A stretch of 64,000 bases of DNA, taken from assembly GCA_963665235.2 (NCBI GenBank), contig CAXXLX010000001.1, positions 3,904,001 through 3,968,000 on the forward strand, in the 5' to 3' direction. The notes under the pieces are model-generated. The model was not told the origin of the DNA and ran no database searches. It was given only the letters and a program-made list of their open reading frames with translations. Of the stretch, positions 17,009 through 55,928 are shown piece after piece (position 1 is the first letter of the stretch; each line of letters starts with the position of its first letter). The stretch is from Candidatus Poribacteria bacterium (GTDB lineage Bacteria > Poribacteria > WGA-4E > WGA-3G). Both the position numbers and the translations under genes were made by a program.

Positions 17009-17719
17009 TCAATCCGCCCTACAAACGCTAACCCGCTCACGCGCGATTTCTACATACTTACTGTCCAGATCACAACCGGCAAACCTACGCTGATTTTTAA
17101 CTGCGGCAACCGCGGTCGTACCTGAACCCAAAAATGGGTCTACGACTAAATCGTCCTGATTGCTATGCTTTAGCACTAACATATCGAACAGTGACAACGG
17201 TTTTTGTGTCGGATGGAGTCTATTCCCGTTGTGTCGCGGGATAGCAAACTCATAAACGCCGATGTCGTATTCGCTATTGAAGGTAGGTTTACCGCCTTTG
17301 ACTCCGACAACCGCCATCTCTCTGCTGTTAGATAGATAGGTCGACCTCATGTTCAACGGCACAGGATTGGTTTTCTGCCAGATAATCTGCCGTAGCATTT
17401 TAAACCCGGCTGTTTCCATCGCCTCCTTTAATCGTCCGATTTTCCATATATCGTACCATACGATGACAGTACCACCGCGGCGTATTGCGCGGTAAAAGAC
17501 TTTTGCCATATCGTCCAGATCTATCTCAGTCCCATCCCAGGGGCCGAAGTCCATACTCACAGCGAACCGCTTTTCGCCATTGACAACCGATGAGAAACCT
17601 GTTTTTCTGCTAATGTTATAGGGTGGGTCGGTCAAGATAAGGTCTGCCGAGCTGGGGGGTAAATCGGTCATAAAGTCGTGATAATCGGAATTTTCGATGC
17701 AAAATTCCTGGCATGTCAT
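17009..17719 (-). CDS. Site-specific DNA methyltransferase, beta class (DPPY)
   Basis: TDPPY, HPTQKP, DPFLGSGTT. Confidence 0.93.
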   Translation of the reverse strand: MTCQEFCIENSDYHDFMTDLPPSSADLILTDPPYNISRKTGFSSVVNGEKRFAVSMDFGPWDGTEIDLDDMAKVFYRAIRRGGTVIVWYDIWKIGRLKEAMETAGFKMLRQIIWQKTNPVPLNMRSTYLSNSREMAVVGVKGGKPTFNSEYDIGVYEFAIPRHNGNRLHPTQKPLSLFDMLVLKHSNQDDLVVDPFLGSGTTAVAAVKNQRRFAGCDLDSKYVEIARERVSVCRAD

Positions 17720-17728
17720 GTGGAACTC

Positions 17729-18565
17729 CTATCGTTCGGTTTTATTGACATTTGATTTGATGTGCTCTTTTGCGATCTGATAGTACTGCGGCAAGATTTC
17801 AATACCGGTAGAATTTCTTGATAACCGCTGAGCCACCTGACAGGTCGTTCCGGACCCCGCAAACGGATCCAACACCCAATCCTTTTCCTTCGTAAACAGC
17901 TTGATAAACCATTCGGGCAACGTCTTCGGAAAAACGGCACTATGTTTGCGATTGCCCGTTTCCGTTGCAAGATGCAAAACGTTCGTCGGATACGCCATTT
18001 TTCTGCCTACCCAATTGGAAACGTTTTTACCAAACCCGCTTCCTACTTTTGATGTATCCCGACCTTTATCTGTCTCGCTGAGGTTTTTCAACCGTTTTTC
18101 CGCCCACTCTCCCATCGGCACCATGACAGCCTCTTGATACATATTGAACTTCTTCGTTTTGTTGAACTGTAAGCACCGCTCCCATGCATCTCTGAATCGG
18201 TTTGGCCATTTGCCGGGATAGCAATTTTTTTTGTGCCAGACAAACTCCTCTGTCCACAACCAGCCCTGTTTTCTCATTTCAAGTATCAACTCAAGAACAT
18301 AGGTGTGCCGTTCGCCGTTAACAGCGTTCTCTTTAATGTTCAGGATGAAGGTGCCAGATGGCTTGAGTACCCTTAGAAATTGTTCTGCACGAGGCATAAA
18401 CCAACTAACGTATTCATCGTGTTTGATTCCGCTATATGTTTTGGCGCGGCGGTCTGCGTAAGGGGGAGATGTCATGATTAGGTCAGACGAATCGGTGTCA
18501 AAATTGGCGAGGACCTCTAAACAATCTCCGAGATACAAATCGGTTTTTACTATTTTCATAGGCAA
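17729..18565 (-). CDS. Site-specific DNA methyltransferase, beta class (SPPY, likely m4C)
   Basis: TSPPY, HSAVFP, DPFAGSGTT. Confidence 0.93.
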   Translation of the reverse strand: MPMKIVKTDLYLGDCLEVLANFDTDSSDLIMTSPPYADRRAKTYSGIKHDEYVSWFMPRAEQFLRVLKPSGTFILNIKENAVNGERHTYVLELILEMRKQGWLWTEEFVWHKKNCYPGKWPNRFRDAWERCLQFNKTKKFNMYQEAVMVPMGEWAEKRLKNLSETDKGRDTSKVGSGFGKNVSNWVGRKMAYPTNVLHLATETGNRKHSAVFPKTLPEWFIKLFTKEKDWVLDPFAGSGTTCQVAQRLSRNSTGIEILPQYYQIAKEHIKSNVNKTER

Positions 18566-18768
18566 CCTGCCTTTGGATACTAGCTTTGGACGAAGTGATG
18601 GATAGCCTCCTTTAAATATTATAGCAGATGTGGCGTTGCCAATGCAAGCGAAAAAACAGGAGGCGAAGTGAATATTTTGTCAAAAGGTTGAACAGTTCTG
18701 AGATAAAAATATCTCGACAGCGTGAAAATTTTGGAAGGGTGTGTAAAGTTTTTGTACTATGATAGTTT

Positions 18769-18890
18769 TTAGTCCAAGAATCGCTCGATTTTCATTTTTC
18801 TTCTATCAACTCTATGAGCTTTATACCAATGAACCTCCGCTTCTCGGATGTTACCATTGGTCAACCGAATATAGGCAAACCCTTTAGGAA
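18769..18890 (-). pseudogene. C-terminal remnant of a small conserved protein (putative TA toxin-like family)
   Basis: KGFAYIRLTNGNIREAEVHWYKAH...KIERFLD resembles a recurrent small-protein C-terminus; no N-terminus or start. Confidence 0.55.
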
Positions 18891-18900
18891 GCTTAACGGA

Positions 18901-18940
18901 AAATAAAAGAGGCAGGCACCCAAAAATGGATACCTGCCTG
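18901..18940 (-). terminator. Intrinsic terminator
   Basis: AGGCAGGTATCC-loop-GGGTGCCTGCCT followed by CTTTTATTT on minus strand. Confidence 0.75.
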
Positions 18941-18969
18941 TCCAGATTGATGTTAGTGGTTGGTGTCAA

Positions 18970-20715
18970 TTAGTCTTGGTGTTTTTGTACTTCACCGTAT
19001 ATATTCTCACACCTTCTCCAACGGCAGCGTGCCCAGGGCTCATTACACACCCCCCAAACAGCTTGATACCGATTTTTCTGTTTAATCCATTTTTGCTGAA
19101 CCACCTTTTTACGCGTGCAGATGCGTGTCTTGTGCAACTCCATTTGGTGGGTATTACAAGACCAGTACAGGTGCCCATGCATACAAGTGACGCGATGATC
19201 ATCCCGAGAAAGCAGCATCTCATTACAGGCACCACGTCGGCATTTCACACGCGTCGGATACTGGTGTGTATGGCTCTGACACGCATAGAAACTCGCCATC
19301 GAACAATTATCACCATAACTATTCGTCACCGAACACGTCGCTTGAAATGAATGATCACCTGACACAGATGTCGCATGAACACCACACACATGCATCGTTC
19401 CCATTCCATGACTACTCGTCTCAGGACATTGCGTATATACACAACCCCAATATACGCGATTGTTACAAGGGGGTGTGTTGCACGTATACGATACATGGTA
19501 ACCTGAAGTCCCCGCAGCATGAACACCACACGCCTCCATCGCAGGGTTCGGCGTTGGTGTCGGATTCGGTGATGGTGCAGGGGGCAGAACAAGCGACGGA
19601 TCCGTGCTTTGCGCAGGAAGTGTAAAAGTTGGTGCTGGCGGTATTGGATTTTTCGGGGGCCACGAATCATCGCGCCAATCGGCATGCACATGACCCGTTG
19701 AATAAAGGAAGGCTCTTCTGGCTGGAGGGTCGGCATTTAAGGCTGCCTGCCGCATCTTTTCCTGGTCATTGCCATCTTCACCATCAATATTCATTCCTCG
19801 GACATCTAAGGCGAGCCCGTATTGATGCAGACCATGCACTGCCGTTCCTCCCGAGTGGTAGACGTTATGATGCGGATTCCGATACCCACTTGTCACAACC
19901 AATTGGTAGCGTGTTAAATCGGGTAAATTTTGGCGCTCTCGTTTATTAATTGCCGTCACCCACGCGTCATGTTTACCTTGCAAGTCTTCGTTAATCATCT
20001 GAGCGTAATGACCGAAATCGTAGAAATCTTCAGGGTCAAAACTGCCGCGTCCCGGAATTTGACGCGCCAGGTCTAAGTATTCCTGACGTATCTGGTCGAT
20101 TTCGTCCTGGTTTAGCTCTAATGACTTTGTAACCGTCTTACCCTGCGTTGTCTGCGCTGTAAACCCGATCGTAATCGTCATGGGCGTACCACCGCGGTGC
20201 CTCGGTGTCCGATTATGACGCTCAGCATTTCCCGCGTCCGTACATATCGCTGGGGTTGTGTTAGGATTAGGGTATTGAGATGTATCGTCATGCCTTGGGA
20301 CATCCAGCTCTGCTACGACATTAAACGATGTGTAACCGCTAAGTTTCGATGGATGCGGACCTGACCAAGAGGTGCTAATAGAGTCCTCGTCAAGTTTTAT
20401 GCCCTGATTCGCCGAAAACGACCACGAAACCGTATCGGGATTAATCGGATCAGTGTTTTGCGGCTGGTTACTATTATAACCGACAGACGCTGAGACCGAA
20501 CACGATGTCTGGGTGCTGGTGATAAAGGTCCTATGTATAGGGACAGAGAGACTATACCCTTTGACACCCCGACCAACACGCCACTCTTTGAAAATTATTG
20601 ACGGTGGAGTCATGGAACCTGAACCGGACCCCGTGTTGAGTGCCGAAAAACTCAGAGTACTAAAAACAGACAGAAACAGAAAAATAGATAGAAACACAAT
20701 ATATTTGATTCGCAT
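18970..20715 (-). CDS. Secreted M15-family (D-Ala-D-Ala) metallopeptidase domain protein with Cys/His-rich tail
   Basis: AAGGAG RBS, signal peptide; VTSGYRNPHHN, HQYGLALD, HVHAD; Pro-rich linker; CGVH...H...C repeats. Confidence 0.8.
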   Translation of the reverse strand: MRIKYIVFLSIFLFLSVFSTLSFSALNTGSGSGSMTPPSIIFKEWRVGRGVKGYSLSVPIHRTFITSTQTSCSVSASVGYNSNQPQNTDPINPDTVSWSFSANQGIKLDEDSISTSWSGPHPSKLSGYTSFNVVAELDVPRHDDTSQYPNPNTTPAICTDAGNAERHNRTPRHRGGTPMTITIGFTAQTTQGKTVTKSLELNQDEIDQIRQEYLDLARQIPGRGSFDPEDFYDFGHYAQMINEDLQGKHDAWVTAINKRERQNLPDLTRYQLVVTSGYRNPHHNVYHSGGTAVHGLHQYGLALDVRGMNIDGEDGNDQEKMRQAALNADPPARRAFLYSTGHVHADWRDDSWPPKNPIPPAPTFTLPAQSTDPSLVLPPAPSPNPTPTPNPAMEACGVHAAGTSGYHVSYTCNTPPCNNRVYWGCVYTQCPETSSHGMGTMHVCGVHATSVSGDHSFQATCSVTNSYGDNCSMASFYACQSHTHQYPTRVKCRRGACNEMLLSRDDHRVTCMHGHLYWSCNTHQMELHKTRICTRKKVVQQKWIKQKNRYQAVWGVCNEPWARCRWRRCENIYGEVQKHQD

Positions 20716-20734
20716 TTGAAAATCTCCTTTTTTG

Positions 20735-21568
20735 CTATTGAAGTTGAGCAAGGGCTGCTTGTGCATCTATTACCGACCCTGAACTAAAACGTTCGAAATG
20801 TTCATCTGCAGCAATTGTTGTGATGTTCGGGATAATGATGTGTTCGACGATACCGCCGAGGTCGTCGCGATATTTTACAGCAATGCGAGCTAAAATCTTT
20901 GCAGCCGTTCCTGCCCACAAGTTATCTTCATGCAAGTATGGAAGAATGAATTGCACGGCTGGAGGACCGATTGCGACTAACCCATCGAACATTTCCCTGC
21001 CCGCAACGGATCCCTCACAAATGTTCGTGATTAAGACCTCCGCTGCTCGTGGATCTCCTTGCGCGATGAGTTCTTCTATTAGAGCATATACTCGATCACC
21101 GTCAGCGTGGTCAATTAAGACTGGCGGTGGCATCAGTTGTGCGATCAGTTCTGTCGCACGTGGCGAATGCACACCACCCCAGGCATAAGGATTGTTTTTG
21201 ATATACTCAAGCCGTTTGTATGCGACTTTTACTGGATCCGCTTTGGGATCAACCTTCGGAAAATCGGGTTTGGTGACGGTCCCCTCGGGTGCGGTCCATT
21301 GCACCTTTGGTTCTGTAGGTTCAGGCGTTTCCTCTTGCCACACATCCGGTGCATCAATCGGCACTTCATGCCAATGATCACCATGCCGCACCATCTTGAA
21401 GCCCGGTCCTGCGACTGGCGGTTTATCGCTTTGTTCAAGTTGTTTCTCGTCTTGTGCAATTTCTTCTTTGGGCTGCGGCACTTCTGACCACTGCCAATAT
21501 ATAAAACCACCTACAGCAATCACGATTATAATGAGAACTGCTATGCCGAAATAAAGTTTTTTGTTCAT
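20735..21568 (-). CDS. Membrane-anchored hypothetical protein (HGDHWH motif, helical C-terminal domain)
   Basis: GGAGG RBS, N-terminal TM helix, HGDHWHEVP. Confidence 0.75.
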   Translation of the reverse strand: MNKKLYFGIAVLIIIVIAVGGFIYWQWSEVPQPKEEIAQDEKQLEQSDKPPVAGPGFKMVRHGDHWHEVPIDAPDVWQEETPEPTEPKVQWTAPEGTVTKPDFPKVDPKADPVKVAYKRLEYIKNNPYAWGGVHSPRATELIAQLMPPPVLIDHADGDRVYALIEELIAQGDPRAAEVLITNICEGSVAGREMFDGLVAIGPPAVQFILPYLHEDNLWAGTAAKILARIAVKYRDDLGGIVEHIIIPNITTIAADEHFERFSSGSVIDAQAALAQLQ

Positions 21569-22771: not shown

Positions 22772-23877
22772 AACACCTAAACCTCCGCATGTATGCAATG
22801 GTGTTTGCCCTGCTCGGTGTCTGGGTAATTTTCAGCCTACTGACTGGTGGCACCTTCCTCAGCACTCGGAACCTTTCCAACCTCTCTCGTCAAGCGGTGG
22901 AGACAGCTATTCTCGCCGTTGGCATGACGCTTGTCATCGTTTCCGCGAACATTGACCTATCCGTAGGCTACGGTGCTGGGTTGCTCGGCGCGATCACAGC
23001 GATTCTGCACGTTTGGTGGGGGCAACCGATTATTTTAACACTCCTTGCTGTTATCTGTGTCGGTGTCCTGATAGGCGCGCTGCACGGTTATCTGGTAGCG
23101 TATCAGCGAATTCCGGCGTTTATCGTCACACTGGGCGGCTTTTTGGCATACCGCGGGTTGATGTTAGCCTTTACTAAAGGCGAGACTATCCTGCTTCCCG
23201 ATAATTGGTTGAAAGCTCTCGGCGGGGCTTACCTGCCACACACACTCGGATGGGGTATTCTAATTGTTGCGCTTGGTGTAAGTGGATACCTGTTTTTCAA
23301 TCAATTTACAAAACCGCAGTCGGAACGTACCTACAAAACGTATCTCCCCACAATTTTCAAAATAATTGGGACGTGGGGGGGACTTATCGCGTTCGTCACA
23401 GTGATGAATTCTCACAAAGGGATTCCGATGCCGGTATGTGTTCTGTCTGGGTTGGTATTTCTATTTCATTTTGTAGCGAATCACACCCGTTTTGGGCGTT
23501 ATGTCTATGCTGTCGGTGGTAACGCGGAGGCGGCGTATCTCTCCGGGGTCAATGTCCGCAGCGTTACACTACGGGTTTTTGCGACGATGGGGGCACTCAT
23601 GGCAATTGCTGGCGTTGTCTTGACCGCACGTGTCGGGAGTGCTAGTCCGGAAGCAGGACGTTTGCTGGAATTAGATGCGATTGCTGCATGTGTTATCGGC
23701 GGTGCCAGTTTAATGGGTGGACGCGGTAGCATTTTCGGGGCCGTTTTGGGTGCGTTCGTTATGGAAAGTCTGGATAACGGGATGAGCCTAGCAAATATGG
23801 ACGCTGCATGGCAGGATATTATCAAAGGGATTGTCCTTGTCGCCGCTGTCGGGTTTGACATGGCATCACGGAAATAA
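22768..23877 (+). CDS. Sugar ABC transporter permease (XylH/RbsC-like)
   Basis: IDLSVG, PAFIVTLGG, GRYVYAVGGNAEAAYLSG, ELDAIAACVIGG. Confidence 0.92.
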   Translation: MKHLNLRMYAMVFALLGVWVIFSLLTGGTFLSTRNLSNLSRQAVETAILAVGMTLVIVSANIDLSVGYGAGLLGAITAILHVWWGQPIILTLLAVICVGVLIGALHGYLVAYQRIPAFIVTLGGFLAYRGLMLAFTKGETILLPDNWLKALGGAYLPHTLGWGILIVALGVSGYLFFNQFTKPQSERTYKTYLPTIFKIIGTWGGLIAFVTVMNSHKGIPMPVCVLSGLVFLFHFVANHTRFGRYVYAVGGNAEAAYLSGVNVRSVTLRVFATMGALMAIAGVVLTARVGSASPEAGRLLELDAIAACVIGGASLMGGRGSIFGAVLGAFVMESLDNGMSLANMDAAWQDIIKGIVLVAAVGFDMASRK

Positions 23878-24031
23878 AATCCCTCAGGTTGCGCCGCCCT
23901 CGATTGGAATTTTGTCCCCCCCCACAGTCGACTTCCTCAAAAAACAGAATTTTCCGACATGTCTCCATTTTTTTAAACCGTTTGCCGAAAATTTCCCCTC
24001 TTTTAACCAAACTCTAATTGGGAATTTACTT

Positions 24032-27000
24032 ATGCATTACGATTTAGTTATGCCCAATGACCTGACAGATGCGGAGCTCGTTCGACGGGTGCAAGCCCGA
24101 GATGAGGCAGCTTTTGCAGAATTGGTAGCCCGTTATAGTCCACGGATTTGGAGTACCGTTGTTGAGAATTCAAGGCAACACCGGGATGCTGAAGAAATTC
24201 TGATGGACATCTGGCAGGTAGTGTGGGAAAACATCAACGGACTGCGGAAAGTGGAAAGTTTTGGCGCGTGGCTGAGACGCATTACGTTTACTGCTTGCAA
24301 CAGATATTACAGCACCGGAACACACGGACGCGAAATTGTTCTAGACTACGAAGATTTGGCCTTTCAAATCGATAGAGATGCTGAACAACGTTTTCACGAT
24401 GAAAGACTTCGAGCTGAGGCAAGAGAGGCTGTGCATCACCTGCCACAGCGAGTGCGGCCCGTTGGAATATTATATTACCTTGAATTGTGGAGTGTCAAAG
24501 AGGTTGCAGCTGAACTTGGCCTAGCGATAGGCACGGTTAAGACGAGGCTGAGTGAAATCAGACGACTGCTCCGTAAAGAATTTGGGGTTGAAGAGGGGAA
24601 AATTATGTCACATAAACAGGAAAAACCTGCAAGTTTGCCAAGTAAATTAAAGGTAATCGGAGTCGGTGGTGCCGGTTGCAATGTGGTCAACGCTATGATT
24701 GAAGCCGGGGCATCGGGCATAGAATTTTGTGTGGTGGATACGGACAAGGCGGCACTTAGTGCCTGTGAGAGAGCAACGCAGGTGCAAATCGGTGTTCGCA
24801 CCACCCTTGGAAGTGGCACGGATGGCATTCTCGAACTTGGCAGACGCGCCGCTGAGGAAAACATGGAGGCACTCCGCGCAATTGTTGCTGATGCAAAGAT
24901 GGTCTTCGTTATAGCGGGTATGGGGGGCGGGACTGGCACTTACGTCGCCCCGCTGATAGCATCTCTATCGCGAGAACAGGGAACATTGACAGCCTGCTTT
25001 GTGACATGTCCGTTCGATGCTGAAGGCGAACGTTGTGCCGAACAAGCAGCACTCGGTTTACAGCAACTGCAAACTGCTTCTCGATATCGGGCAGATGCAG
25101 TCATTGTTGTGCGAAACCAACAGGTTATTGAAATGAGTGACCAGCAATTATCTATGCACGAGGCGTGTCAGAAAACCGATGAAATCCTGCTTTACGGCAT
25201 TCGAAGCATTTCGGATATCATCGTAGAGGCTGGGGAAATCAACGTTGGCTTTCCTGACATTCAGAAGATGTTGCGCGACCAGGGGAACGTGCTAATGGGG
25301 ATAGGAAAAGCAAAAGGTGAAAATCGGGCGAAAATCGCTGCCGAGAACGCCATCGCCTCACCCCTACTCGGAGACGCTAGCCTCGTCGGAGATAAGGTGA
25401 TGATTGTTAATATCACCGCATCCCCAGAGTTTGCAATACACGAATTAGAGCAGGCCATGAAAGTCATCAGGAAAACAGCAGCGGACGCACAACCTATTTT
25501 CGGATTGGTCTACAAGGATGAATTGCAACATAGCGGTGAAGTGGTGGTGACTATAATTGCCAATGGCTCCGATTTACCAAAGGAAATCGCTTCGCCAAGT
25601 ATGGATATGGTAGACGATGCATCGCCAGGGCAAGGTGCTATTATCTTACCATCAAACAGTTCAGACTTTGTGCATCTACACAATCACAGCGAATATAGTC
25701 TACTGGATGGCGCGTGCCGGATACCGGATATGGTCCAGTGGGCAGTTGAGCACAGCTCGCCTGCTGTTGCCATTACAGACCACGGCAACATGTTCGGTGC
25801 ACGGGAATTTTACAACGCCACGAAAGAAGCCGGTGTGAACCCAATTGTCGGATGTGAGGTGTATGTTGAAGCTGGGAATGGGCAATCTGAACCGTCCCAT
25901 CTCACCTTGCTGGCAGAGGACGCTATAGGTTACGCGAATCTCTTAAAATTGACATCGTTCGGATGGACGCAAGGTTTCCGTAGAAAACCGTGTATCACTC
26001 TGGAAATCTTACGGGAATATCACGACGGTATTATTGCCCTGACAGGGTGTATCTATGGGATAGTGCCGCAGCTAATCTGTTCGGATAGAAAAGATGAGGC
26101 ACTCCGAAACTTTTTGACGTTGAAAGACATCATGGGAGAGAATAACCTGTATGTTGAGATACAGAATCACTATCTCGATACGGAGTTGGCAGCGTATCCT
26201 GTGATGCTCGAATTGGCGAAAGAACACGACCTTCCTATCGTAGGAACGAACGATTGTCACTACCTCCGAAAATCTGACCACCGCATGCACGATGTGCTTT
26301 GCTGTATCCGGACAAGGAAAACTGTCAATGACGCTGAACGCCTAAGGTTTGACAATCATTTCTATTTCAAAAATGTTGACGAAATGCAAGCGGCACTTAA
26401 AACGTATCCTCCTGAGGCGATTAGCAATACCGTTGAAATTGCGAATCGATGTAACCTACAACTGGAGGACAACAAAAGTGTGATGCCGATATTTGAGGTG
26501 CCGGCGGGACATACACACGACACTTATCTGAAAACGTTGTCTTATGAGGGGTTACGTCAAAAATATGGAGGGCATCTCGCTGAACCGATTCGCACCCGAC
26601 TGGAATATGAACTGGATATCATCGAACAGATTGGGCACGCTAACTATTTCCTGCTTGTAGCAGATTATGCCACCTACGCGAACAGCCAGGGATATCCCTT
26701 CTCTGCGCGCGGTTCGGCGGCAGGCAGCCTTGTGCTTTACGCCCTCGGTATCATCAATTTTAATCCGATGAATTACGGATGTCTGTTTGAAAGGTTTCTA
26801 AACCTTGATAGGCTTACCACGCCAGATATTGACATAGATTTCCCCGGACATGCTCGTCAAGACATGGTGGATTACCTTGCGAAAAAGTACGGACAGGACT
26901 CTGTCGGTCGTATTGTTACCTTTACTACGTTGGGGGCGAGGTCAGCTATCAAAGATGTCGGACGGGCCCTTGAAATTCCGCTTGATTCCATCGAAAAGTT

Positions 27001-28291
27001 GACAGACCTAATTCCACACATTCCGGGAATCACGCTTGAGGCAGTTTTGAAAGAGGTTCCAGAATTTCAGACGTTTGCTGCACTCCCTGAAAATAGAGAG
27101 TTGATAGAAATTAGTCAAGCGGTAGAGGGGACGAAACGGCATGTCTCCTGTCATAATTCTGCTGTTGTGATTTCAAACGGGCCCCTTACCGATTACGTCC
27201 CACTTTTCAAAGATAAACATGGACAGGTCGCGGTACAGCTTGAACGAAACGCAGTTGAAGATGTCGGTGTCGTCAAATTGGATATCCTCGGTTTGTGTAG
27301 CCTCTCCAGCATCTCTACCTGTCTCAGGACGATTCAGGAAAACCGTGGCCGCAGGATTGCACTTGAAGATATTCCGCTTGACGACAAAAAAACCTATTCA
27401 CTCATCAGTGAAGGCTTGCTGGCTGGGCTTTTTCAACTTGAAACCTCTCCCGACATGCAGCAGGTTGTTACCGAGCTCAAAGCGGAAAATTTTGAGGAAT
27501 TTTCGGCAATCCCGGCACTCTATCGACCCGGTCCCATTGAAAATGGTGACCTGCAGCGGTTCATTGCAAGGAAAAATGGCATCGCCCCGACAAGGTACGC
27601 GCATCCATCGCTTGAAAATGTGCTTAAAAGCACTTTCGGTGTCTGTATCTATCAGGAACAGGTGATGAAGATAGCGTGTGAGATAGCAGGTTTCACGCTC
27701 GGCGAGGCGGATATCCTCCGTTCTGCAATGGGCAAAAAAGATGAAATGCTTATTGCGGGGCAGCGACAGAAATTCGTTGAAGGCGCGATGAAAAATGGCA
27801 TCGCCGAAGCGGAGGCGGAAGAGGTCTTTGAATATCTGAAATCTGTCGGGAGATATGCCTTCAACAAATCGCACAGTGTCACGTATTCTCTGTTAAGCTA
27901 TCGGATGGCGTATCTGAAAACGCACTACCCGCACGAATTTATGGCGGCGATGCTGACAAGTGAAGCAGCATATACCGAGAAAATCACCCGCTACCGTGCT
28001 GAATGTTCTGAACTGGCTGACTTCCTCGGCGTAGAAATTAACCTCTTACCCCTTGATATCAACCACAGTGAGAAGCATTTCACAGTGGATGGCAACGATA
28101 TTCGTTGTGGCCTTCTTGCTGTTGCGGTTTTGGGGGATGAAGCGATAGATTCAATTATAGCAGAGAGACATCAGCGAGGGGTGTTCACCTCACTCCAAAA
28201 TTTCCGAGAACGCGTGGATACGGAACACGTGAATGCGTACGCTATTGAAAGCCTTGTGGCAAGCGGCGCATTCAAAACGTTTCCGATGTAA
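24032..28291 (+). CDS. Fusion protein: ECF sigma factor - FtsZ GTPase domain - DNA polymerase III alpha (DnaE, truncated after HhH)
   Basis: Sigma r2/r4 (FGAWLRRI; SVKEVAAELGLAIGTVKTRL); FtsZ (VIGVGGAG, AGMGGGTGT); DnaE (HLHNHSEYSLLDG, RGSAAGS, PDIDIDF, KLDILGL, YQEQVM, YAFNKSH); one uninterrupted frame; start 24032 or 24050. Confidence 0.9.
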   Translation: MHYDLVMPNDLTDAELVRRVQARDEAAFAELVARYSPRIWSTVVENSRQHRDAEEILMDIWQVVWENINGLRKVESFGAWLRRITFTACNRYYSTGTHGREIVLDYEDLAFQIDRDAEQRFHDERLRAEAREAVHHLPQRVRPVGILYYLELWSVKEVAAELGLAIGTVKTRLSEIRRLLRKEFGVEEGKIMSHKQEKPASLPSKLKVIGVGGAGCNVVNAMIEAGASGIEFCVVDTDKAALSACERATQVQIGVRTTLGSGTDGILELGRRAAEENMEALRAIVADAKMVFVIAGMGGGTGTYVAPLIASLSREQGTLTACFVTCPFDAEGERCAEQAALGLQQLQTASRYRADAVIVVRNQQVIEMSDQQLSMHEACQKTDEILLYGIRSISDIIVEAGEINVGFPDIQKMLRDQGNVLMGIGKAKGENRAKIAAENAIASPLLGDASLVGDKVMIVNITASPEFAIHELEQAMKVIRKTAADAQPIFGLVYKDELQHSGEVVVTIIANGSDLPKEIASPSMDMVDDASPGQGAIILPSNSSDFVHLHNHSEYSLLDGACRIPDMVQWAVEHSSPAVAITDHGNMFGAREFYNATKEAGVNPIVGCEVYVEAGNGQSEPSHLTLLAEDAIGYANLLKLTSFGWTQGFRRKPCITLEILREYHDGIIALTGCIYGIVPQLICSDRKDEALRNFLTLKDIMGENNLYVEIQNHYLDTELAAYPVMLELAKEHDLPIVGTNDCHYLRKSDHRMHDVLCCIRTRKTVNDAERLRFDNHFYFKNVDEMQAALKTYPPEAISNTVEIANRCNLQLEDNKSVMPIFEVPAGHTHDTYLKTLSYEGLRQKYGGHLAEPIRTRLEYELDIIEQIGHANYFLLVADYATYANSQGYPFSARGSAAGSLVLYALGIINFNPMNYGCLFERFLNLDRLTTPDIDIDFPGHARQDMVDYLAKKYGQDSVGRIVTFTTLGARSAIKDVGRALEIPLDSIEKLTDLIPHIPGITLEAVLKEVPEFQTFAALPENRELIEISQAVEGTKRHVSCHNSAVVISNGPLTDYVPLFKDKHGQVAVQLERNAVEDVGVVKLDILGLCSLSSISTCLRTIQENRGRRIALEDIPLDDKKTYSLISEGLLAGLFQLETSPDMQQVVTELKAENFEEFSAIPALYRPGPIENGDLQRFIARKNGIAPTRYAHPSLENVLKSTFGVCIYQEQVMKIACEIAGFTLGEADILRSAMGKKDEMLIAGQRQKFVEGAMKNGIAEAEAEEVFEYLKSVGRYAFNKSHSVTYSLLSYRMAYLKTHYPHEFMAAMLTSEAAYTEKITRYRAECSELADFLGVEINLLPLDINHSEKHFTVDGNDIRCGLLAVAVLGDEAIDSIIAERHQRGVFTSLQNFRERVDTEHVNAYAIESLVASGAFKTFPM

Positions 28292-28505
28292 ACGTTAGCG
28301 TGTGTGAAAAAAGAGCTCAACAAACAGAACTATATAGTGTAAAATTACTAAACTTTGGACAATTTTAGGGTGTGTCCAGTTTTTGTCAAAGGGATAGGTG
28401 GAAGATTGGAAGGGGGGAAGGCTGGAAGACTGGAAGCAGGGTGTGTAAAGTTTTTGTACGTCTGCGATATTTTTTCTGAAGAAAAATCAAACCATTGGCA
28501 ACTAA

Positions 28506-28745
28506 TACCATTTTTATTAATTATTCTATCATTACCGGTTGTTAGAAATGAAACGGAGAACGGCACAAACTGGAAGTTTATGCTACGATAAAACGCACAA
28601 ACTGGAAGTTTATGCTACGATAAAACGCACAAACTGGAAGTTTATGCTACGATAAAACGCACAAACTGGAAGTTTATGCTACGATAAAACGCACAAACTG
28701 GAAGTTTATGCTACTACAAAGAGACATTTTCAATTAGAAATGGTA
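28506..28745. mobile_element. MITE with TACCATTT inverted ends and TAA target duplication, carrying a REP array
   Basis: TAA|TACCATTTTTATT ... AATTAGAAATGGTA|TAA. Confidence 0.65.
28563..28714 (-). repeat. Tandem array of 5 x 32-bp GTAG-REP units
   Basis: GCACAAACTGGAAGTTTATGCTAC plus constant GATAAAAC linker. Confidence 0.92.
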
Positions 28746-28748
28746 TAA

Positions 28749-29392
28749 CATAACAGAGAACCAAAACATTTTTCGGAGGAACGCGGCACGGTTTGCAACT
28801 TACCTGACCAGACATCGATAGCGAAAGTGTCACATTTCTTTTTTTTTGAAAATCGTCCAAGGGGGTGTAAACGGCGGACAAACATAGATGGGGCGGGCGT
28901 TTGGGCACATTCAGCACCGAGAACCGGATGTTACACTTTGTGTCGAAAGTGTAACTTATGCACACAAATGGCACAAAAAATAGGAGGCAGAACCATCCGA
29001 AGAGTCCGAAGAACTGATACCCGAAAACCGTCAGTTGAAATGACACATTTTGTTTTTTTGTGTTGCGAAAAAGATAGGGGTAAATCGCTTGAAAACATAG
29101 ACGTGGCGTGAGTTTGTGCGACTGCAGCACCGAGAAGCGAATGTTACACTTTGTGTCAAAAGTGTAACTTATGCACCGGAGCGGCAGAGAAAAATAGCAG
29201 ACACATCGGTAAGAAAAGTAGGCAGAACTGATAAACGAAAACCGGTGGTCGAAATGTCACACTTCATTTTTTTTGTGTTGTGAAAAAGACGGGTCGAAAC
29301 CGCTTGAAAACATAGACGTGGCGTGAGTTTGTGCGACTGCAGCACCGAGAAGCGAATGTTACACTTTGTGTCAAAAGTGTAACTTATGCACC
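28749..29392 (+). repeat. Three ~214-bp imperfect tandem units each with a GTTACACTTT-N6-AAAGTGTAAC palindrome
   Basis: Cores at 28912, 29125, 29340; inverted relative at 57501-57724. Confidence 0.85.
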
Positions 29393-29526
29393 GGTTTTGT
29401 ACAAAAACTTTACACACCCTCTCATCCACTATCGCTTGACACATCGACGCATTTTCCTTGACTTCACAACTTTCTAATGATATACTAAACATTGGTATCC
29501 TCTCTTTTTTCACAAGTTTATTATTT

Positions 29527-30764
29527 ACTAAACTTTGGACAATTTTAGGGTGTGTAAAGTCAAAGGCTCTTTATAGATGGAAGGGTGGAAGAGGGTGTGG
29601 TCAAAGGGATAGATGGAAGGGTGGAAGAGTGGAAGGGTGGATTTCGCTTGTGTTGTCTGAATCACGGAAGGCACGGAGAACAGAGAGAACGCGGAATGGA
29701 AGGTGCGGAACAATCAAAGGTTTGTGATTATAGGTTAGGGTGTTGTTCTTTCTATAAAGATACCGCCCCGCTGGGGCTATTTTGTGGTGTGGTTGCGTTT
29801 TCTATAAAGATACCGCCCCGCTGGGGCTATGCTTTTGCACATTGGTGTCTCTTTTCTACTGTTTGTGTTTGTGTGAGCAACAGTGAGAAAAATCAGAAAT
29901 GCTTTGAAAATCGGGCATCAGGCTCACGGATATTGTCCAAACTATAGTATTATTTAGAAAGGATACCATTTTTTTATTTTCCTGACAACAAGGCTTTGTA
30001 CAAACAGTCCGATGTCTTATGTAGGAGTGTGCTTCGCACGCGACTGGCACCCCTCGACCTGTCTGGAATCCCGACATTCATCTTATGTAGAAACCTGCTT
30101 CGCACGCGACCTCCTAACGTAACTTGAGGGGAACAGTCCGCTCTTAGCCCCAGCGGGGCGGTATCTTTATAGAAAACCCAAACAAAACACAAAATAGCCC
30201 CAGCGGGGCGATATGTTTATAGATGTTAGCCAAACCCCGCTTCTTTCCGCCTCCGCCGCGTCCTCCGCACCTTCCTTGATTCAGCAAAAAATGCGTAGAT
30301 GTTAGCAACAAACCTCTTTTTTCCGCGTCCGCTGTGTCCTCTGTGTCCACCGCACTTTGCGGCATCCTCGCCCAAATGCGACGGGCATTCTGACAAAAAA
30401 AGCACAACATCCCTTAATCACAAAACCTTGACGCATACACACCTTAAAATCCGCGTAATCCGCGATAATCCGCGATTTGCGGCGTATTCGCCCAAATGCG
30501 CCGTGCATTCTGACAACACACGCGAAATCCACCCTGCCCCGCTTCCACCCTTCCACCCTTCCACTTATCATAGTGCAACGTGAGTTTGATAATAAATGTC
30601 GGTTTGCACTAACCCCTATAAAGGTATCGTCCCGATGGGACTAAGATTTGGGGCGTGTCCCTCTGCTTCTATAAAGATAGCGTTCCTAAGGAGCGAGCTG
30701 GTTGCCGGAATACTAAGGGAAAACTTTTTCCAAACTCACGTTAGTACAAAAACTTTACACACTC
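29527..30764. repeat. Composite mosaic of REP/MITE modules arranged as a large imperfect inverted repeat
   Basis: GGAAGGGT octamers, CGCGGA nonamers, CTATAAAGATACCGCCCCGCTGGGGCT hairpins (29752, 29802; reversed 30146, 30196), GTAG REPs in the centre. Confidence 0.8.
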
Positions 30765-30780
30765 ATTCCGAAAAAAGAGG

Positions 30781-30998
30781 TTGACAAATAATTCTGCATA
30801 GTGTAAACTTTAAAATGAATTCTGTGAGCGAAAGCGGACCGAAAAACCATAGACCCTCACAGAAGGGGTTGAACCCTTATAGACTGTGGCTTGAAATGTC
30901 CATCTACCTATTTTTGGCAATTTCTGTTGCGGGAAAAAGTGCCGCTCACAGAAATGCAGGCTTTCATGCTATGTACAGTAAGGGTTGAAAACGCGGGC
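30781..30998 (+). promoter_or_regulatory. CRISPR leader with promoter
   Basis: TTGACA-N17-TAAACT at 30781-30809; TCTGTGAGCG / CGCTCACAGA inverted motifs; directly precedes first repeat. Confidence 0.7.
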
Positions 30999-31788
30999 GT
31001 TGAAACGAAAAGATGCCCGATTACGAGATTGAAACGATACCGTTTGACTTTGGCGAGAATCCGATTCTTATTGATGGTTGAAACGAAAAGATGCCCGATT
31101 ACGAGATTGAAACACTGACAGTCACCATGGACGTAGCTGGCAGTCTCGGGTGTTGAAACGAAAAGATGCCCGATTACGAGATTGAAACTTCCGTCATATT
31201 GTTGCCCCGAAAAGTTTCTCGGTTAGTTGAAACGAAAAGATGCCCGATTACGAGATTGAAACTGAAAACATAGCATCAGACCGAAGTGAACAAGGTTTCC
31301 GTTGAAACGAAAAGATGCCCGATTACGAGATTGAAACGAGGAGACAGAGTTGTCCGGCCCGCCCGATGTGTTGAAGTTGAAACGAAAAGATGCCCGATTA
31401 CGAGATTGAAACCCCGTGTAAGCCGTCTATGGTGGATTTAGACGCGATTGAGTTGAAACGAAAAGATGCCCGATTACGAGATTGAAACGGTACCTAATTC
31501 CAATCCGATGGTGGAAAGCATCAAAGTTGAAACGAAAAGATGCCCGATTACGAGATTGAAACCCATCGGTTCGTTGGTAACAATCGGAGACAAGGTCAGT
31601 TGAAACGAAAAGATGCCCGATTACGAGATTGAAACGATAAATCTCCTCGTGGTCAGCTTTCTCACCTGTTTCCTCCCAGTTGAAACGAAAAGATGCCCGA
31701 TTACGAGATTGAAACCAGCAGTTGTCAAAATGGTTGACGGGGCGGAAAAGTGTTGAAACGAAAAGATGCTCGATTACGAGATTGAAAC
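30999..31788 (+). CRISPR. CRISPR array, 11 repeats and 10 spacers, no cas genes in window
   Basis: 37-bp repeat GTTGAAACGAAAAGATGCCCGATTACGAGATTGAAAC; unique 36-43 bp spacers; last repeat has one C>T change; ATTGAAAC 3' end typical of Cas6-processed class 1 repeats. Confidence 0.98.
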
Positions 31789-31795
31789 AAATATT

Positions 31796-34297
31796 TTAGG
31801 GTGGAGAAACAGTATACGTAAACCAACATCGCGTCCCATCGGTTTTCAAAATAATCGCCCCGACCTGATCGGTCCGTAACTGAACAGCATTCCGTTTCCG
31901 ATACCGGGCCACGACCTCCGGATGCGGCAATCGATACCGATTCCTTTCACCAAGTGAAAAGATAGCATACCGGGGTTGAACAGCATCTAAAAACTCGGCA
32001 CCGCTTGAGCTTCGGCTGCCGTGATGCGGCACCTTCAGAATTTCCGCCCTTAAATCTTGCTGCGATGCAATTAACCGCGCCTCCGCCTTTGTCTCAATAT
32101 CCCCAGTGAACAGGATGTCCACTTCACCGTAGCTGAGCTTCATCACGAGCGAATCATCGTTCTTATCCGTATCCGTAAGCACGGTAGATACTGCATCGAT
32201 GGGGTGTAAAAGATTAACCGTTGCGGTCGGAGTCAAATCAATTTTTCCTGCGTATGGAAAAGCGTAGGGAATATTTCGCGACTTGGCAATACTGCGTAAA
32301 CGTTCATAGTTTTTGGAAGCCAACGTCACGTCCGGAACTCCGATGAGTTGCTTCACCTTAAAGTTTTGGAGAATGTATGCAAGCCCACCCTCATGGTCTG
32401 CGTCTGGGTGGGTGAGCATAACCGTGTCAAGAGCTCGAATGCCGTGCCTGTCCAAGTAAGGTTCAATAATGCGTTCCCCCACGTCATATTCAACCATCTT
32501 CTGCCGCTCTGGATTGAAATACGAACTTTGGATGCCGCCATCAATCAACATCGCTCGGTTATCGGGAAATCTGATGACTGCCGCGTCCCCTTGACCGACA
32601 TCAAGTGTAATCACCTCTAACAGACGACCTTTTTCATGGAGTGCACTGCTCCAAACCCAAATTGCCACGACCGATAACCCGATAAGACTCGCCACACGCC
32701 ACTGTTTATACACATACCGCCAGTGGACAATACCGAGACATACCGCTATGTAAACAACGATGAGCCCTAACGTAGGCGGCGTCACCTTCATGATGCCCCA
32801 CGCCTGTCCAAAAATGCCGATGAGTTTTAGAAAAATGAAGATAATCGCATGATTAACCATAGCGAGGAGTTTGGCAAGCGGAAGATAGATAAAACCTAAA
32901 GAGACCGATACCATGCCTATACCAACGATTAATGAAACAAGGCCAACAGCAAACGGCCCCACAATTACGCCTAGCGGATATGCCCTGAAAAAATGGTAAG
33001 CGATAAGGGGGCCAGTACCGAGCTGTGCCGCGAAAGTGACGAGGTAGGATAGCACTAACCATTTCACGGCTCTGTCCTTAAATCTGAGCGGAATACTCGA
33101 ATCCGCAGCCTCCCCGGAATCCCACAACTTCTGTAAAGGTCTCTCCATTTTCGGAACAAAATAGACAATGGAAGCGACAGCGACAAACGACAACTGAAAA
33201 CCGACATCCCACACCTGTGTTGGGTTCAAAAGGAGTAAAACTAAGGCAGCAACAGCCAGAAGATTGAAGAGGTCCGCATCGCGGTCAATAATAGTGGCAA
33301 ATAGAAATAGAATTGCCATGAACGCGGCGCGAAATACAGAGGGACGGAAACCGACTAAAACGGCATAGATAAGCACTGCGCCAATTGTCAACAGACACAG
33401 CATCTTTCTATGAAGCCGAAACACGGACAACCCAAAATAACAAAACATTGCGATAAGTCCAACGTGCAACCCGGACACCGATAACACATGGAACGTGCCG
33501 CTGTTCCGAAAGATGTCCAAGGTCTCTGATGGCACATCACCCCGTTTTCCGAGGAGAATGCCTTTGAGCAGTTGTGCATGCAACGCATTGGTAGGAGGCG
33601 TTTCCAACCCTGATACATTGCCCGATATATTGGTAGAAAACGTTTGTAACCCCGTGTAAGTTGTATCAATTAGCTGCTCCGTCTGAATGCGGAGGGTTTC
33701 TATCCATTGTAGCGGTAGAAATCCTGCTTGTTCGCCTATCTGCGACGTGTCTTGCGGATAAATTATACCAGCAACATTTTGCCGTGCAAGATAGGCACGA
33801 TAGTCAAATCCGCCAGGGTTCCGCCGTGTTTGCGGTTGACGCAGGACACCTATTAGCCTTAGGCGGTTACCGTAACGGAGCGGCATCAGTTCTTGAAACC
33901 GTATCAAGAACTTTGCTTTCACCGTTTGTGTCGGTTCAGATAGGAGTTGAACCTGTCCGACAGCGTAACAGGCATCCCACGCTGTTCCGCGTTCCGGTTG
34001 ATAGACAGTTTTACCTGTAAAACTGACCCGCTGCTCATAAAAATCGGAGGGAATTGATGAGAGCGTTGAAATTTCTAGACGTAACATTCCGCCCGCAAAA
34101 ACAGCGATGTGAAGCAACAGGTAACACAGGTATTTTGCCCGGGATTTCGCCAGCATACTCCCAATAAGGCATATTAGGATAGATAACCAGAGCCACAGGA
34201 GCGGAATTGCTGTATATCTACCCGTTACAATGCCGAGCAAAAACGGAATAATGAAGTAGAGCGCAGGCCGTGGTTTGAATCTCATTACAATTTGCAT
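31796..34297 (-). CDS. comEC: DNA internalization competence protein ComEC/Rec2
   Basis: NPGGFDY, HVLSVSGLHVG, GFQLSF, LDVGQGDA, THPDADH, KVPHHGS; start 34297 or 34285. Confidence 0.95.
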   Translation of the reverse strand: MQIVMRFKPRPALYFIIPFLLGIVTGRYTAIPLLWLWLSILICLIGSMLAKSRAKYLCYLLLHIAVFAGGMLRLEISTLSSIPSDFYEQRVSFTGKTVYQPERGTAWDACYAVGQVQLLSEPTQTVKAKFLIRFQELMPLRYGNRLRLIGVLRQPQTRRNPGGFDYRAYLARQNVAGIIYPQDTSQIGEQAGFLPLQWIETLRIQTEQLIDTTYTGLQTFSTNISGNVSGLETPPTNALHAQLLKGILLGKRGDVPSETLDIFRNSGTFHVLSVSGLHVGLIAMFCYFGLSVFRLHRKMLCLLTIGAVLIYAVLVGFRPSVFRAAFMAILFLFATIIDRDADLFNLLAVAALVLLLLNPTQVWDVGFQLSFVAVASIVYFVPKMERPLQKLWDSGEAADSSIPLRFKDRAVKWLVLSYLVTFAAQLGTGPLIAYHFFRAYPLGVIVGPFAVGLVSLIVGIGMVSVSLGFIYLPLAKLLAMVNHAIIFIFLKLIGIFGQAWGIMKVTPPTLGLIVVYIAVCLGIVHWRYVYKQWRVASLIGLSVVAIWVWSSALHEKGRLLEVITLDVGQGDAAVIRFPDNRAMLIDGGIQSSYFNPERQKMVEYDVGERIIEPYLDRHGIRALDTVMLTHPDADHEGGLAYILQNFKVKQLIGVPDVTLASKNYERLRSIAKSRNIPYAFPYAGKIDLTPTATVNLLHPIDAVSTVLTDTDKNDDSLVMKLSYGEVDILFTGDIETKAEARLIASQQDLRAEILKVPHHGSRSSSGAEFLDAVQPRYAIFSLGERNRYRLPHPEVVARYRKRNAVQLRTDQVGAIILKTDGTRCWFTYTVSPP

Positions 34298-34350
34298 GGA
34301 ATTTGTGGTAGTATTCCATGCATTATAGCGTATCCTATGAAAATTATCAA

Positions 34351-34436
34351 GGGGGTGTAAAATTTTTGTCACAGAGATAGGTGGAAGGATGGAAGGATGG
34401 AAGGATGGAAGGATGGAAGAGGGGAAGCGGAAGAAG
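34351..34436 (+). repeat. Dispersed terminal motif plus (GGAAGGAT)n octamer run
   Basis: GGGGTGTAAAATTTTTGTC then GGAAGGAT x4; related to 28367-28460 and 36055-36110. Confidence 0.75.
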
Positions 34437-52861: not shown

Positions 52862-53235
52862 GCGCGCTCGTAGTCTCGCAGCATTTCGTCTAAAGCGGTG
52901 CTGCTGTTTATCCCGATGTTGCTAGCGGTTTGCATGTCTGCTTTCGCTTTGTCTATCTTTCCAAGGCGTAACCAAGCCTTGCTGCGACAGTAATAAGCAT
53001 CAGCATAATCGGGTTTGATTTCTATCGCCGCGGTATAGTCCGCAACGGCTTTGTCAAGTTCGCCATTTTTAGCGTAAGCACGCCCGCGCTGATAGGATGC
53101 CTCGGCAAACTCCGGATTCAGTTCTATCGCCCTGGTGTAGTCTTTAATAGCAAGTTCAACCTCGCCTTTTTCGCTAGACGCTACACCGCACGTGTAATAT
53201 TTATTGGCAAGTTCTTGATTTCGTTTTTGCATCAT
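52828..53235 (-). CDS. Short TPR protein with antitoxin-like C-terminal peptide
   Basis: Three TPRs; tail LDEMLRDYERAWTTLG overlaps doc start. Confidence 0.8.
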   Translation of the reverse strand: MMQKRNQELANKYYTCGVASSEKGEVELAIKDYTRAIELNPEFAEASYQRGRAYAKNGELDKAVADYTAAIEIKPDYADAYYCRSKAWLRLGKIDKAKADMQTASNIGINSSTALDEMLRDYERAWTTLGNISDI

Positions 53236-53729: not shown

Positions 53730-53731
53730 TC

Positions 53732-55312: not shown

Positions 55313-55430
55313 TCATGTCCCTATTTCAGCACCTTGTTCTATCAATTCGCTCGGATGAATGGATAGATACGCTCTCACTTCCAGATTCATCCGCTCGATT
55401 TCGGCAAGAAACCTCCTGCCGATTTCCCTC
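55313..55430 (-). pseudogene. C-terminal remnant of a small hypothetical gene
   Basis: RFLAEIERMNLEVRAYLSIHPSEL...stop, with no start, between the duplicated units. Confidence 0.45.
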
Positions 55431-55926: not shown

Positions 55927-55928
55927 TC

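Follow-up and report, generated by a model that had tools for sequence, protein, structure and literature searches.

The window analysed in this work, a stretch of 64,000 nt from a Candidatus Poribacteria genome (contig CAXXLX010000001.1), carries on its plus strand a single gene (24032-28291) whose predicted product of 1419 aa joins an extracytoplasmic function (ECF) sigma factor, a paralogue of the cell division protein FtsZ and the core of the replicative polymerase subunit DnaE, as identified with Pfam and NCBIfam profiles and by comparison with homologues. Sigma factors, FtsZ and the replicative polymerase belong to machines that textbooks present as separate. A previous reading made from the letters of the window (hereafter the sequence-only reading) had pointed out this triple fusion and stated that no described protein is known to join the three components; none was found in the literature searched. 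Positions given below are those of the window unless another locus is named.

Architecture of the fusion gene

The reading frame is open from 23831 to 28291, with its stop codon at 28289-28291 and its first ATG at 24032, where a GGGAA ribosome-binding-like element and the start codon together occupy 24020-24034 (plus strand). A GGGAA-type element upstream of the start is conserved in relatives, and the N-terminus of the open reading frame (ORF) aligns with those of its homologues, M1 being nearly invariant (alignment A1). The sequence-only reading had described one sigma-FtsZ-DnaE frame, and a hidden Markov model check against Pfam and NCBIfam recovered every domain it had named. Counted in residues from 23831, the Pfam ranges are Sigma70_r2 98-160, Sigma70_r4_2 196-247, Tubulin 273-436, FtsZ_C 485-579, PHP 615-780, DNA_pol3_alpha 899-1154, the polymerase finger domain 1158-1323 and HHH_6 1403-1484.

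In window coordinates, and always on the plus strand, the ECF sigma module spans 24032-24604 (sigma2 at about 24122-24310 and sigma4 at about 24416-24571), followed by the FtsZ paralogue at 24605-25567, with its GTPase domain at 24647-25138 and its C-terminal domain at 25283-25567. A Ser-, Thr-, Pro- and Gly-rich linker some 33 residues long (25568-25666) leads into the DnaE core (25667-28288), made up of PHP (25673-26170), palm/NTPase (26525-27292), fingers (27302-27799) and helix-hairpin-helix (HhH; 28037-28282) domains. A complex prediction pairing residues 1-190 with residues 200-515 on alignment A1, run without controls, gave a sigma/FtsZ score of 0.00 relative to a mark of 0.32.

Authenticity and distribution

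The sigma-FtsZ-DnaE fusion is confirmed as a genuine single ORF and not an assembly artefact. Logan contigs from four runs in three studies together cover 23700-28371, the best run showing 0-1 differences. The sigma/FtsZ junction is bridged by contigs X5 record 18 (24352-24753) and X1 record 1 (to 24649), and the FtsZ/DnaE junction by X1 record 3 (25523-25696) and X6 records 28 and 29; contigs of three studies thus cross both of the points at which the sequence-only reading had allowed for a chimeric assembly.

The same architecture recurs in related genomes. All three parts (sigma, Tubulin and DnaE families) are present in 118 of the best 120 of 260 protein-search matches, at 55-86% identity, and where source names are given these homologues are labelled as Candidatus Poribacteria 'DNA polymerase III subunit alpha' or 'cell division protein FtsZ'. 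The distribution of the fusion was assessed by searching 176 genomes of the phylum with a 200-residue query across the sigma4/FtsZ junction at E<=1e-40, a mark inferred from the gap in E-values that separates junction matches from matches to the FtsZ half only. The query matched 101 of 107 genomes in genera g1 (1/1), g3 (37/40), g4 (1/1) and g6 (62/65), all within one family, and none of the other 69 genomes of the phylum (0/69), in which the FtsZ half alone was matched at about 1e-27 to 1e-33. Among the 150 of 366 matches listed, an open frame of at least 1340 aa lies at the junction in at least 55 genomes. With the fusion protein as query, a search of genome contigs brought up nothing but an unrelated ECF (24% identity) in a Latescibacterota metagenome-assembled genome, and a protein-cluster search returned generic sigma clusters only, at a score (0.78) under the usable level.

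The sigma module and its family

The sigma module scores 59.1 with the TIGR02937 sigma70-ECF profile (cut-off 42.9) and 32.5 bits with Sigma70_r4_2 (cut-off 25.7), and it matches the solved ECF structures SigE, RpoE, SigH and SigW along its full length. It contains sigma2 and sigma4 only, the domain content of ECF (group 4) sigma factors, and continues into a C-terminal extension of 1230 aa, a length of more than 50 aa being what defines such an extension.

Searching with the sigma part (193 aa) identified 559 longer proteins at E<=1e-20. The best 120 of these comprise sigma-FtsZ-DnaE proteins with or without HhH, sigma-FtsZ, sigma-FtsZ N-domain and sigma-propeller proteins, sigma-FtsZ proteins ending in a PHP stub, and sigma-DnaE proteins without FtsZ (P0003, P0146 and P0157). 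Seven of eight open frames tested from relatives are sigma-WD40 fusions, and sigma-DnaN fusions of 576-588 aa bearing all three clamp domains were located in G016, G020 and G012 (L041:885-2612, plus strand; L042:8000-9742, minus strand; L023:380-2143, plus strand). Those of G020 and G012 have a sigma-FtsZ-N gene within a few kb, with ABC-2 permeases also near. A survey of sigma fusions for other essential partners, as the sequence-only reading had envisaged, therefore yields DnaN, FtsZ alone and DnaE alone, in addition to WD40, and a given genome holds several paralogues with different C-terminal modules. In a sigma tree of 52 rows, from which two sigma-DnaN rows and one other ECF are missing through failure of the anchor motif, the fused sigmas all fall into a single clade, well removed from two ordinary ECFs of the window genome (SH-aLRT 99). 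One sigma subfamily, here termed sigma-X, thus carries at least six different extensions: FtsZ, FtsZ N-domain, FtsZ-DnaE, DnaE, DnaN and WD40.

Triple fusions and sigma-FtsZ genes of 558-622 aa share one locus, 3' of the same gene cluster. Several of the sigma-FtsZ proteins end in remnants of the DnaE N-terminus and nest within triple-fusion clades, which indicates that DnaE was lost secondarily; by the sigma tree, FtsZ has been lost at least twice. Across the family the C-terminal modules are lost and the sigma part never is. Genus g2 has no sigma fusions and carries a DnaN-FtsZ fusion of 694-710 aa (L043:1929-4010 and L044:2069-4198, both on the minus strand, and L047), consisting of three clamp domains and a full FtsZ with no sigma part, beside the gene of a sigma54 activator of 359 aa that has no sensor domain.

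The FtsZ module

The fused FtsZ is recognised by the Pfam Tubulin (3.9e-35) and FtsZ_C (7.1e-18) profiles and falls under the cut-off of the TIGR00065 equivalog (265.3 vs 295.2). The genome's canonical FtsZ (463 aa) lies above this cut-off (385.7), shares 55% identity with the fused copy and carries a tail of about 130 aa ending in the conserved peptide. The sequence-only reading had noted an intact GTP-binding signature, a T7 loop reading NVGFPD and a missing C-terminal peptide, and all three hold for the window protein, whose T7 loop (25241-25258, plus strand) has its first Asp replaced by Gly. As a family trait, the weakened T7 loop does not stand: the first T7 Asp is D in 106 of 113 triple fusions, N in five and G in one, the window protein, and the second is kept in 111/113. 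The Asp-to-Gly change is private to the window lineage. The GGGTG signature is kept in all 113, and the Gly position of the T1 loop is occupied by Asp in 82 of them.

An FtsZ tree of 76 rows was built from a random draw of at most 12 database proteins for each class, to which the copies found in fetched loci were added. In it all 55 fused domains, including those of sigma-FtsZ, sigma-FtsZ-N and DnaN-FtsZ proteins, group apart from the 17 canonical ones, at a node that was not starred (SH-aLRT 92).

Almost all of FtsZ (24650-25516, plus strand) is absent from a natural variant through an in-frame deletion of 864-867 nt, whose joint (24649 to 25514/25517) is seen in runs X1, X2 and X5. Depth in run X1 is 14 at the joint, 17.9 inside the deleted segment and 34.7 in the flank, from which it follows that FtsZ-bearing and FtsZ-deleted forms co-occur in the same samples. 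Protein P0003 (1131 aa), 93-95% identical to the window protein, lacks residues 208-494.

The DnaE module

The fused DnaE covers positions 3-884 of the 1146 positions of NF004226, scoring 1001.5 with a cut-off of 1002; the genome's canonical DnaE (1173 aa), to which it is 70% identical, covers positions 3-1144 and scores 1266.6. Aligned to E. coli alpha, the fused part spans residues 5-889, the portion contained in the crystallised constructs of 910-927 residues. The sequence-only reading had stated that the polymerase Asp motifs and PHP metal ligands are kept and that the protein stops before the clamp-binding motif, the OB fold and the tau-binding region. Both statements are borne out: PDIDIDF, KLDILGL and all nine PHP ligand columns are intact, and the ORF ends at model position 884, the three downstream elements being absent.

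This conservation extends to the 118 triple fusions. The columns of the polymerase Asp triad, which we take to be catalytic by reference to DnaE of E. coli, T. aquaticus and M. tuberculosis, retain their residues in 113, 118 and 117 of them, and the nine PHP ligand columns do so in 111-118. A set of 29 canonical DnaE proteins has 318 invariant columns, of which 244 stay kept in at least 90% of the fusions; the HhH domain is missing from about half of the fusions. A DnaE tree of 44 rows (10 fusions, 22 canonical proteins, five further paralogues and seven outgroups) unites the fusion DnaE parts in a single clade (SH-aLRT 99) that lies inside the canonical DnaE of the family.

A split-intein DnaE was considered and rejected, as no DnaE C-terminal piece follows the fusion gene and the genome has only two DnaE matches. 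Elsewhere in the family, G013, G017, G019 and G006 (loci L068-L072) have extra, full-length-looking DnaE paralogues with open frames of 1116-1168 aa beside the canonical copy, four of which form a clade of their own.

Duplication and selection

The fused FtsZ and DnaE are in-family duplicates, spare beside complete canonical ftsZ and dnaE genes; the sequence-only reading had doubted that they were the working copies, and they are not the sole ones. Ratios of non-synonymous to synonymous divergence (dN/dS) were computed by the NG86 method for nine pairs among eight genomes, G000 and G007 being excluded as too divergent. They amount to 0.07-0.18 for the fused sigma, 0.15-0.37 for the fused FtsZ and 0.08-0.17 for the fused DnaE; canonical FtsZ, available for five pairs, gives 0.02-0.06 and canonical DnaE 0.04-0.07. 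Synonymous divergence (dS) among the compared pairs is saturated, at 0.6-1.2. Fused parts evolve 1.5-8 times faster than canonical ones at non-synonymous sites, yet all fused domains are under purifying selection with active sites intact. The neutral decay that the sequence-only reading had considered is not observed, dN/dS across the fused domains lying between 0.07 and 0.37.

Upstream motif and candidate internal start

A promoter-like motif, TTTAAACC-N18-CTCTTT(T/A), lies after a T-tract at 23972-24004 (plus strand) and is a candidate ECF-type -35/-10 pair. In the form TTTAAACC-N18-CTCTTTA, and again after a T-tract, it is found 45-75 nt before the starts of every class of the sigma-X family, the classes with the motif upstream in relatives being the triple, sigma-FtsZ, sigma-FtsZ-N, sigma-WD40 and sigma-DnaN fusions; the sigma-DnaN gene of L023 has two upstream copies. 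A search of 41 genomes returned 39 motif sites, compared with eight for a reversed control, nearly all of them in fusion-carrying genera. A position weight matrix (PWM) was derived from 21 sites of stored loci with spacer columns included, and may be overfitted; scanned with it, the window genome gives 40.4 bits for the fusion gene's own site and 18.2 for the next, the best reversed-PWM score being 21.5. A regulon search of the window genome with a strict motif pattern recovered the fusion gene's own site only, and two looser patterns gave 17 and 7 matches, compared with 6-14 and 0-3 in shuffled sequences.

In L102, L103 and L105 the motif also precedes the gene of a secreted WD40 protein of 657 aa and that of a different ECF fusion, of 909 aa, with BNR/Sortilin-like repeats; it is possible that these two proteins are regulon members in relatives. 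The loose promoter scan of G000 also brought up six copies of an element of about 27 nt, of the type TAAACCTG.TTAGAATC.CAAAC (C1:3577601, 4116022, 3678415, 3556251 and 3351283; C2:572172), which looks like a dispersed repeat rather than a promoter.

A second candidate signal lies within the gene, where an in-frame purine run resembling a Shine-Dalgarno (SD) sequence, GAAGAGGGGA, and the ATG of Met192 (24605-24607) together span 24590-24607 (plus strand) at the sigma/FtsZ junction. Met192 is kept in all 118 triple fusions. An SD-like motif at -15 to -5 of the junction ATG is present in 20 of 20 DNA sequences (21 were supplied, that of L035 having no junction Met), compared with 24 of 442 other internal Met codons, and the purine DNA core persists while the junction residues vary. 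The junction SD and ATG would probably yield a sigma-less FtsZ-DnaE product as well. The window residues Met524 and Met526, at the FtsZ/DnaE linker, are not conserved, and there is thus no second internal start.

Conserved neighbourhood

The fusion gene is preceded by genes for TatD and an ABC permease, in a synteny of housekeeping genes conserved across genera. Downstream, relatives have SBP, M23 peptidase and CorC genes, or ComF-like and SMC genes. No anti-sigma-like gene was seen beside the fusion gene or at its relatives' loci, and none of the families of PADLOC-DB 2.0 matches the window protein at E<=0.001.

Interpretation

We favour, at a probability of roughly 0.4, a reading in which the protein is an autoregulated ECF sigma factor that FtsZ polymers and replicating DNA tether or sequester; this is in essence the cell-cycle coupler that the sequence-only reading had offered as its alternative. 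The sigma part would bind core RNA polymerase and read the TTTAAACC-N18-CTCTTTA promoter, at a minimum the one before its own gene, and would in doing so establish positive autoregulation. The C-terminal modules would retain their native biochemistry, with the FtsZ module binding GTP and joining FtsZ polymers, the DnaE core binding primer-template DNA and, in sister proteins, DnaN encircling DNA. The modules would thereby hold the sigma factor, by tethering or sequestration, at the Z-ring or on DNA undergoing replication, so that sigma availability, or the site of transcription, would be set by the state of replication and division, and the sigma-less FtsZ-DnaE form could compete or co-assemble with the full-length protein. 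We infer sigma activity, autoregulation, co-assembly, tethering and the existence of two products from sequence. The kept catalytic, PHP and GTP-binding residues fit domains whose biochemistry is in use better than they fit passive decoys, and the pattern of the family leans toward replication and division, as seen in the sigma-DnaN fusions and in the DnaN-FtsZ gene placed beside a sigma54 activator in genus g2.

Several observations weigh against tethering of an autoregulated sigma factor. Sigma70_r2 scores only 20.9 bits, under the Pfam cut-off of 24. No second site in the window genome exceeds the reversed-PWM control, and hence no regulon was found there; the promoter-like motif could, moreover, be read by another factor instead. 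The fused FtsZ runs into the DnaE linker with neither the C-terminal linker nor the membrane-tether peptide, and in the window protein its T7 loop is weakened by the loss of the first Asp. The fused DnaE has no clamp- or tau-binding regions, making its usual entry into the replisome impossible. At the same time, the strict conservation of the polymerase and PHP sites exceeds the needs of simple tethering, hinting at a catalytic role that tethering would leave unexplained. Lastly, repeated module loss and the within-sample FtsZ polymorphism suit an accessory or conflict role as well as one in the cell cycle.

Such a conflict role was the first suggestion of the sequence-only reading, in which the FtsZ and DnaE modules are integrated decoys or guards, mimicking the targets of a phage protein, toxin or antibiotic, so that an attack would free or activate the sigma factor and launch a response. 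In plants, NLR immune receptors with integrated decoys likewise consist of a signalling protein to which a copied host target is joined, an analogy at the level of concept. Much in the family agrees with the idea: the modules duplicate essential proteins beside working copies; constraint is relaxed, most of all on FtsZ, whose dN/dS is 4-8 times that of the canonical protein; modules are gained and lost quickly, FtsZ being present or absent within the same samples; each genome has several paralogues with different baits; and in the window genome the gene has a methylase island upstream and a CRISPR array 2.7 kb downstream. These last two features, however, are not part of the conserved neighbourhood, in which the locus is syntenic across genera amid housekeeping genes. 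Residues that would be useless to a passive mimic are kept in 111-118 of 118 fusions for DnaE and in 113 of 113 for FtsZ, and, unlike for the plant receptors, no attacker, effector regulon or defence-system match was found for the window protein, with no PADLOC match and no effector genes preceded by the promoter motif in the window genome. We consider the decoy idea unlikely on balance; it is helped by the duplication and the rapid module turnover and weakened by the intact active sites, the housekeeping synteny and the absence of a PADLOC match and of a regulon in the searches made. The interpretation given by the sequence-only reading is, overall, partly supported.

The conservation of the polymerase site bears more directly on another explanation, according to which the sigma part delivers an active, clamp-independent DnaE core to opened promoters, where short RNAs would be extended into DNA; in a variant, the polymerase would act on DNA at the transcription bubble. 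FtsZ would act as a GTP-dependent clustering scaffold. The conserved Asp triad and nine PHP ligands and the 244 of 318 invariant columns kept speak for it, as do a retained segment coinciding with the portion of E. coli alpha crystallised on its own, sigma-DnaE proteins without FtsZ in at least two lineages, and exactly one strong sigma-type site per gene. Nevertheless, sigma-FtsZ has outlasted repeated losses of DnaE at the same locus, the HhH DNA-binding domain is absent from about half of the triple fusions, the same sigma is also fused to non-catalytic WD40 propellers, and no replicon or repeat is conserved beside the site in relatives, and we regard this explanation as quite unlikely. A more elaborate form of it, to which we would attach still lower odds, is promoter-specific, transcription-primed DNA synthesis in which RNA polymerase carrying sigma-(FtsZ)-DnaE opens a single dedicated promoter, its nascent RNA is passed directly to the tethered, clamp-independent polymerase core and the sigma-DnaN and sigma-FtsZ sisters supply the clamp and a GTP-driven scaffold.

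The candidate internal start raises the question of whether the gene mostly makes two proteins, with FtsZ-DnaE (or another C-terminal protein) as the main product and sigma read-through as a tolerated by-product of a stop codon lost in a former sigma-X operon. The junction Met present in 118/118, the SD-like motif seen 20 times out of 20 as opposed to 5% at other Met codons, and a junction peptide of purine-rich codons whose residues vary while the DNA core stays would all be accounted for. On the other hand, the parts are not divided by a stop in a single one of the 118 triple fusions, nor in the other classes, and at a dS of 0.6-1.2 the joined form would not have persisted unless it were selected; the sigma part, furthermore, is never lost, whereas the C-terminal modules are. 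The two-protein explanation is accordingly very improbable in our judgement. That the gene is an assembly chimera or a decaying pseudogene can be dismissed as extremely improbable, nothing but the T7-loop change and the sub-threshold equivalog scores speaking for it and independent assemblies, recurrence in relatives, kept active sites and dN/dS well below 1 speaking against it.

Relation to known systems

Coupling of gene expression to replication or division is known mainly through the clamp-activated late transcription of phage T4 and through indirect checkpoints. In the portions of the sources at hand, the late transcription of phages T4 (with the sigma-like gp55, gp33 and the clamp gp45) and Mu (with the host beta clamp) is described as replication-dependent (PMC7892883, PMC2988020, PMC12867686). 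The sigma-X proteins resemble these systems in that a factor conferring promoter specificity is physically joined to a replication protein, and the sister sigma-DnaN proteins bear a clamp at the sigma C-terminus. They differ in that the coupling is covalent, cellular and chromosomal, that the window protein bears FtsZ and a polymerase core with no DnaN, and that they are known from sequence alone.

Among ECF sigma factors, the sections available of one source describe C-terminal extensions as the mode of regulation that ranks second in frequency, the absence of a neighbouring anti-sigma gene as typical of extension-regulated members, and extensions of the SnoaL-like, TPR, Cys-rich, DUF1835 and transmembrane types (PMC7826278). 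Like ECF41, ECF42 and ECF238, the window protein combines a minimal sigma2-sigma4 core with a long C-terminal extension, no adjoining anti-sigma gene and a probably autoregulated promoter; unlike the extension-type ECFs, its extension consists of 1230 aa of replication and division paralogues with intact active sites. The main texts of PMC7826278 and PMC8999054 contain no mention of FtsZ, tubulin, polymerase III or Poribacteria, and their supplements may list such architectures. Full-text literature searches on sigma fusions to FtsZ or DNA polymerase III, on Poribacteria sigma/WD40 proteins and on decoy sigma factors returned no description either. ECF sigmas with extensions are thus known, and a sigma family bearing FtsZ, DnaE or DnaN appears to be undescribed in print.

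The fused copies share with canonical FtsZ and DnaE1 the same Pfam folds, the GTP-binding signature, the Asp triad and the PHP ligands, and differ from them in having no FtsZ linker and peptide and no DnaE clamp-binding, OB and tau regions, and in scoring below both equivalog cut-offs. If the favoured tethering of the sigma factor is true, the family offers a direct molecular handle on the coupling of gene expression to replication and division. It would enlarge the known repertoire of ECF sigma regulation, with paralogues of essential genes recruited as signalling modules, and the fusion provides experimenters with a clamp-independent DnaE core and an FtsZ deletion polymorphism that both occur naturally. 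Since these organisms are uncultured, close homologues being named Candidatus Poribacteria, the proteins need to be studied heterologously.

Other features of the window

Four genes on the minus strand (17009-21568), inserted in this genome only between an enolase-family gene and TatD, which are adjacent in the conserved cluster of relatives, encode two N6/N4 DNA methylases and two proteins of 598 and 277 aa with no Pfam match; the segment looks like a restriction-modification-type island. On the other side, the fusion gene is followed by an ORF-poor repeat tract of 2.7 kb (28292-30990) comprising a perfect 32-bp tandem repeat of 4.8 copies (28563-28714), a 215-bp unit of 2.4 copies (28880-29394), GGAAG-rich runs and hairpin-like repeats. 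Contig depth in run X1 is about 1000 at 28369-28500, compared with about 33 in the gene, and this stretch is therefore highly multi-copy in the samples. The tract leads into a CRISPR-like array (30999-31794) with 11 copies of a 37-nt repeat (GTTGAAAC...GATTGAAAC) at a spacing of 73-80 nt, directly followed by a ComEC-like gene on the minus strand (31796-34372). The interval between fusion gene and array has no large ORF, and cas genes were not seen in the vicinity. Methylase island, repeat tract and array all fall outside the conserved neighbourhood of relatives. We also considered the tandem repeats as the origin or centromere of a replication-partition module and rejected the idea, as they are not in that conserved neighbourhood and the fused domains originated from genes of the host itself.

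Further along the minus strand, a two-gene module is present as a tandem duplicate (53232-55192 and 55429-57389). Its first gene encodes a TPR protein of 486 aa ending in a UPF0175 domain, the two copies being 89% identical, and its second gene a DUF3368 protein of 165 aa.

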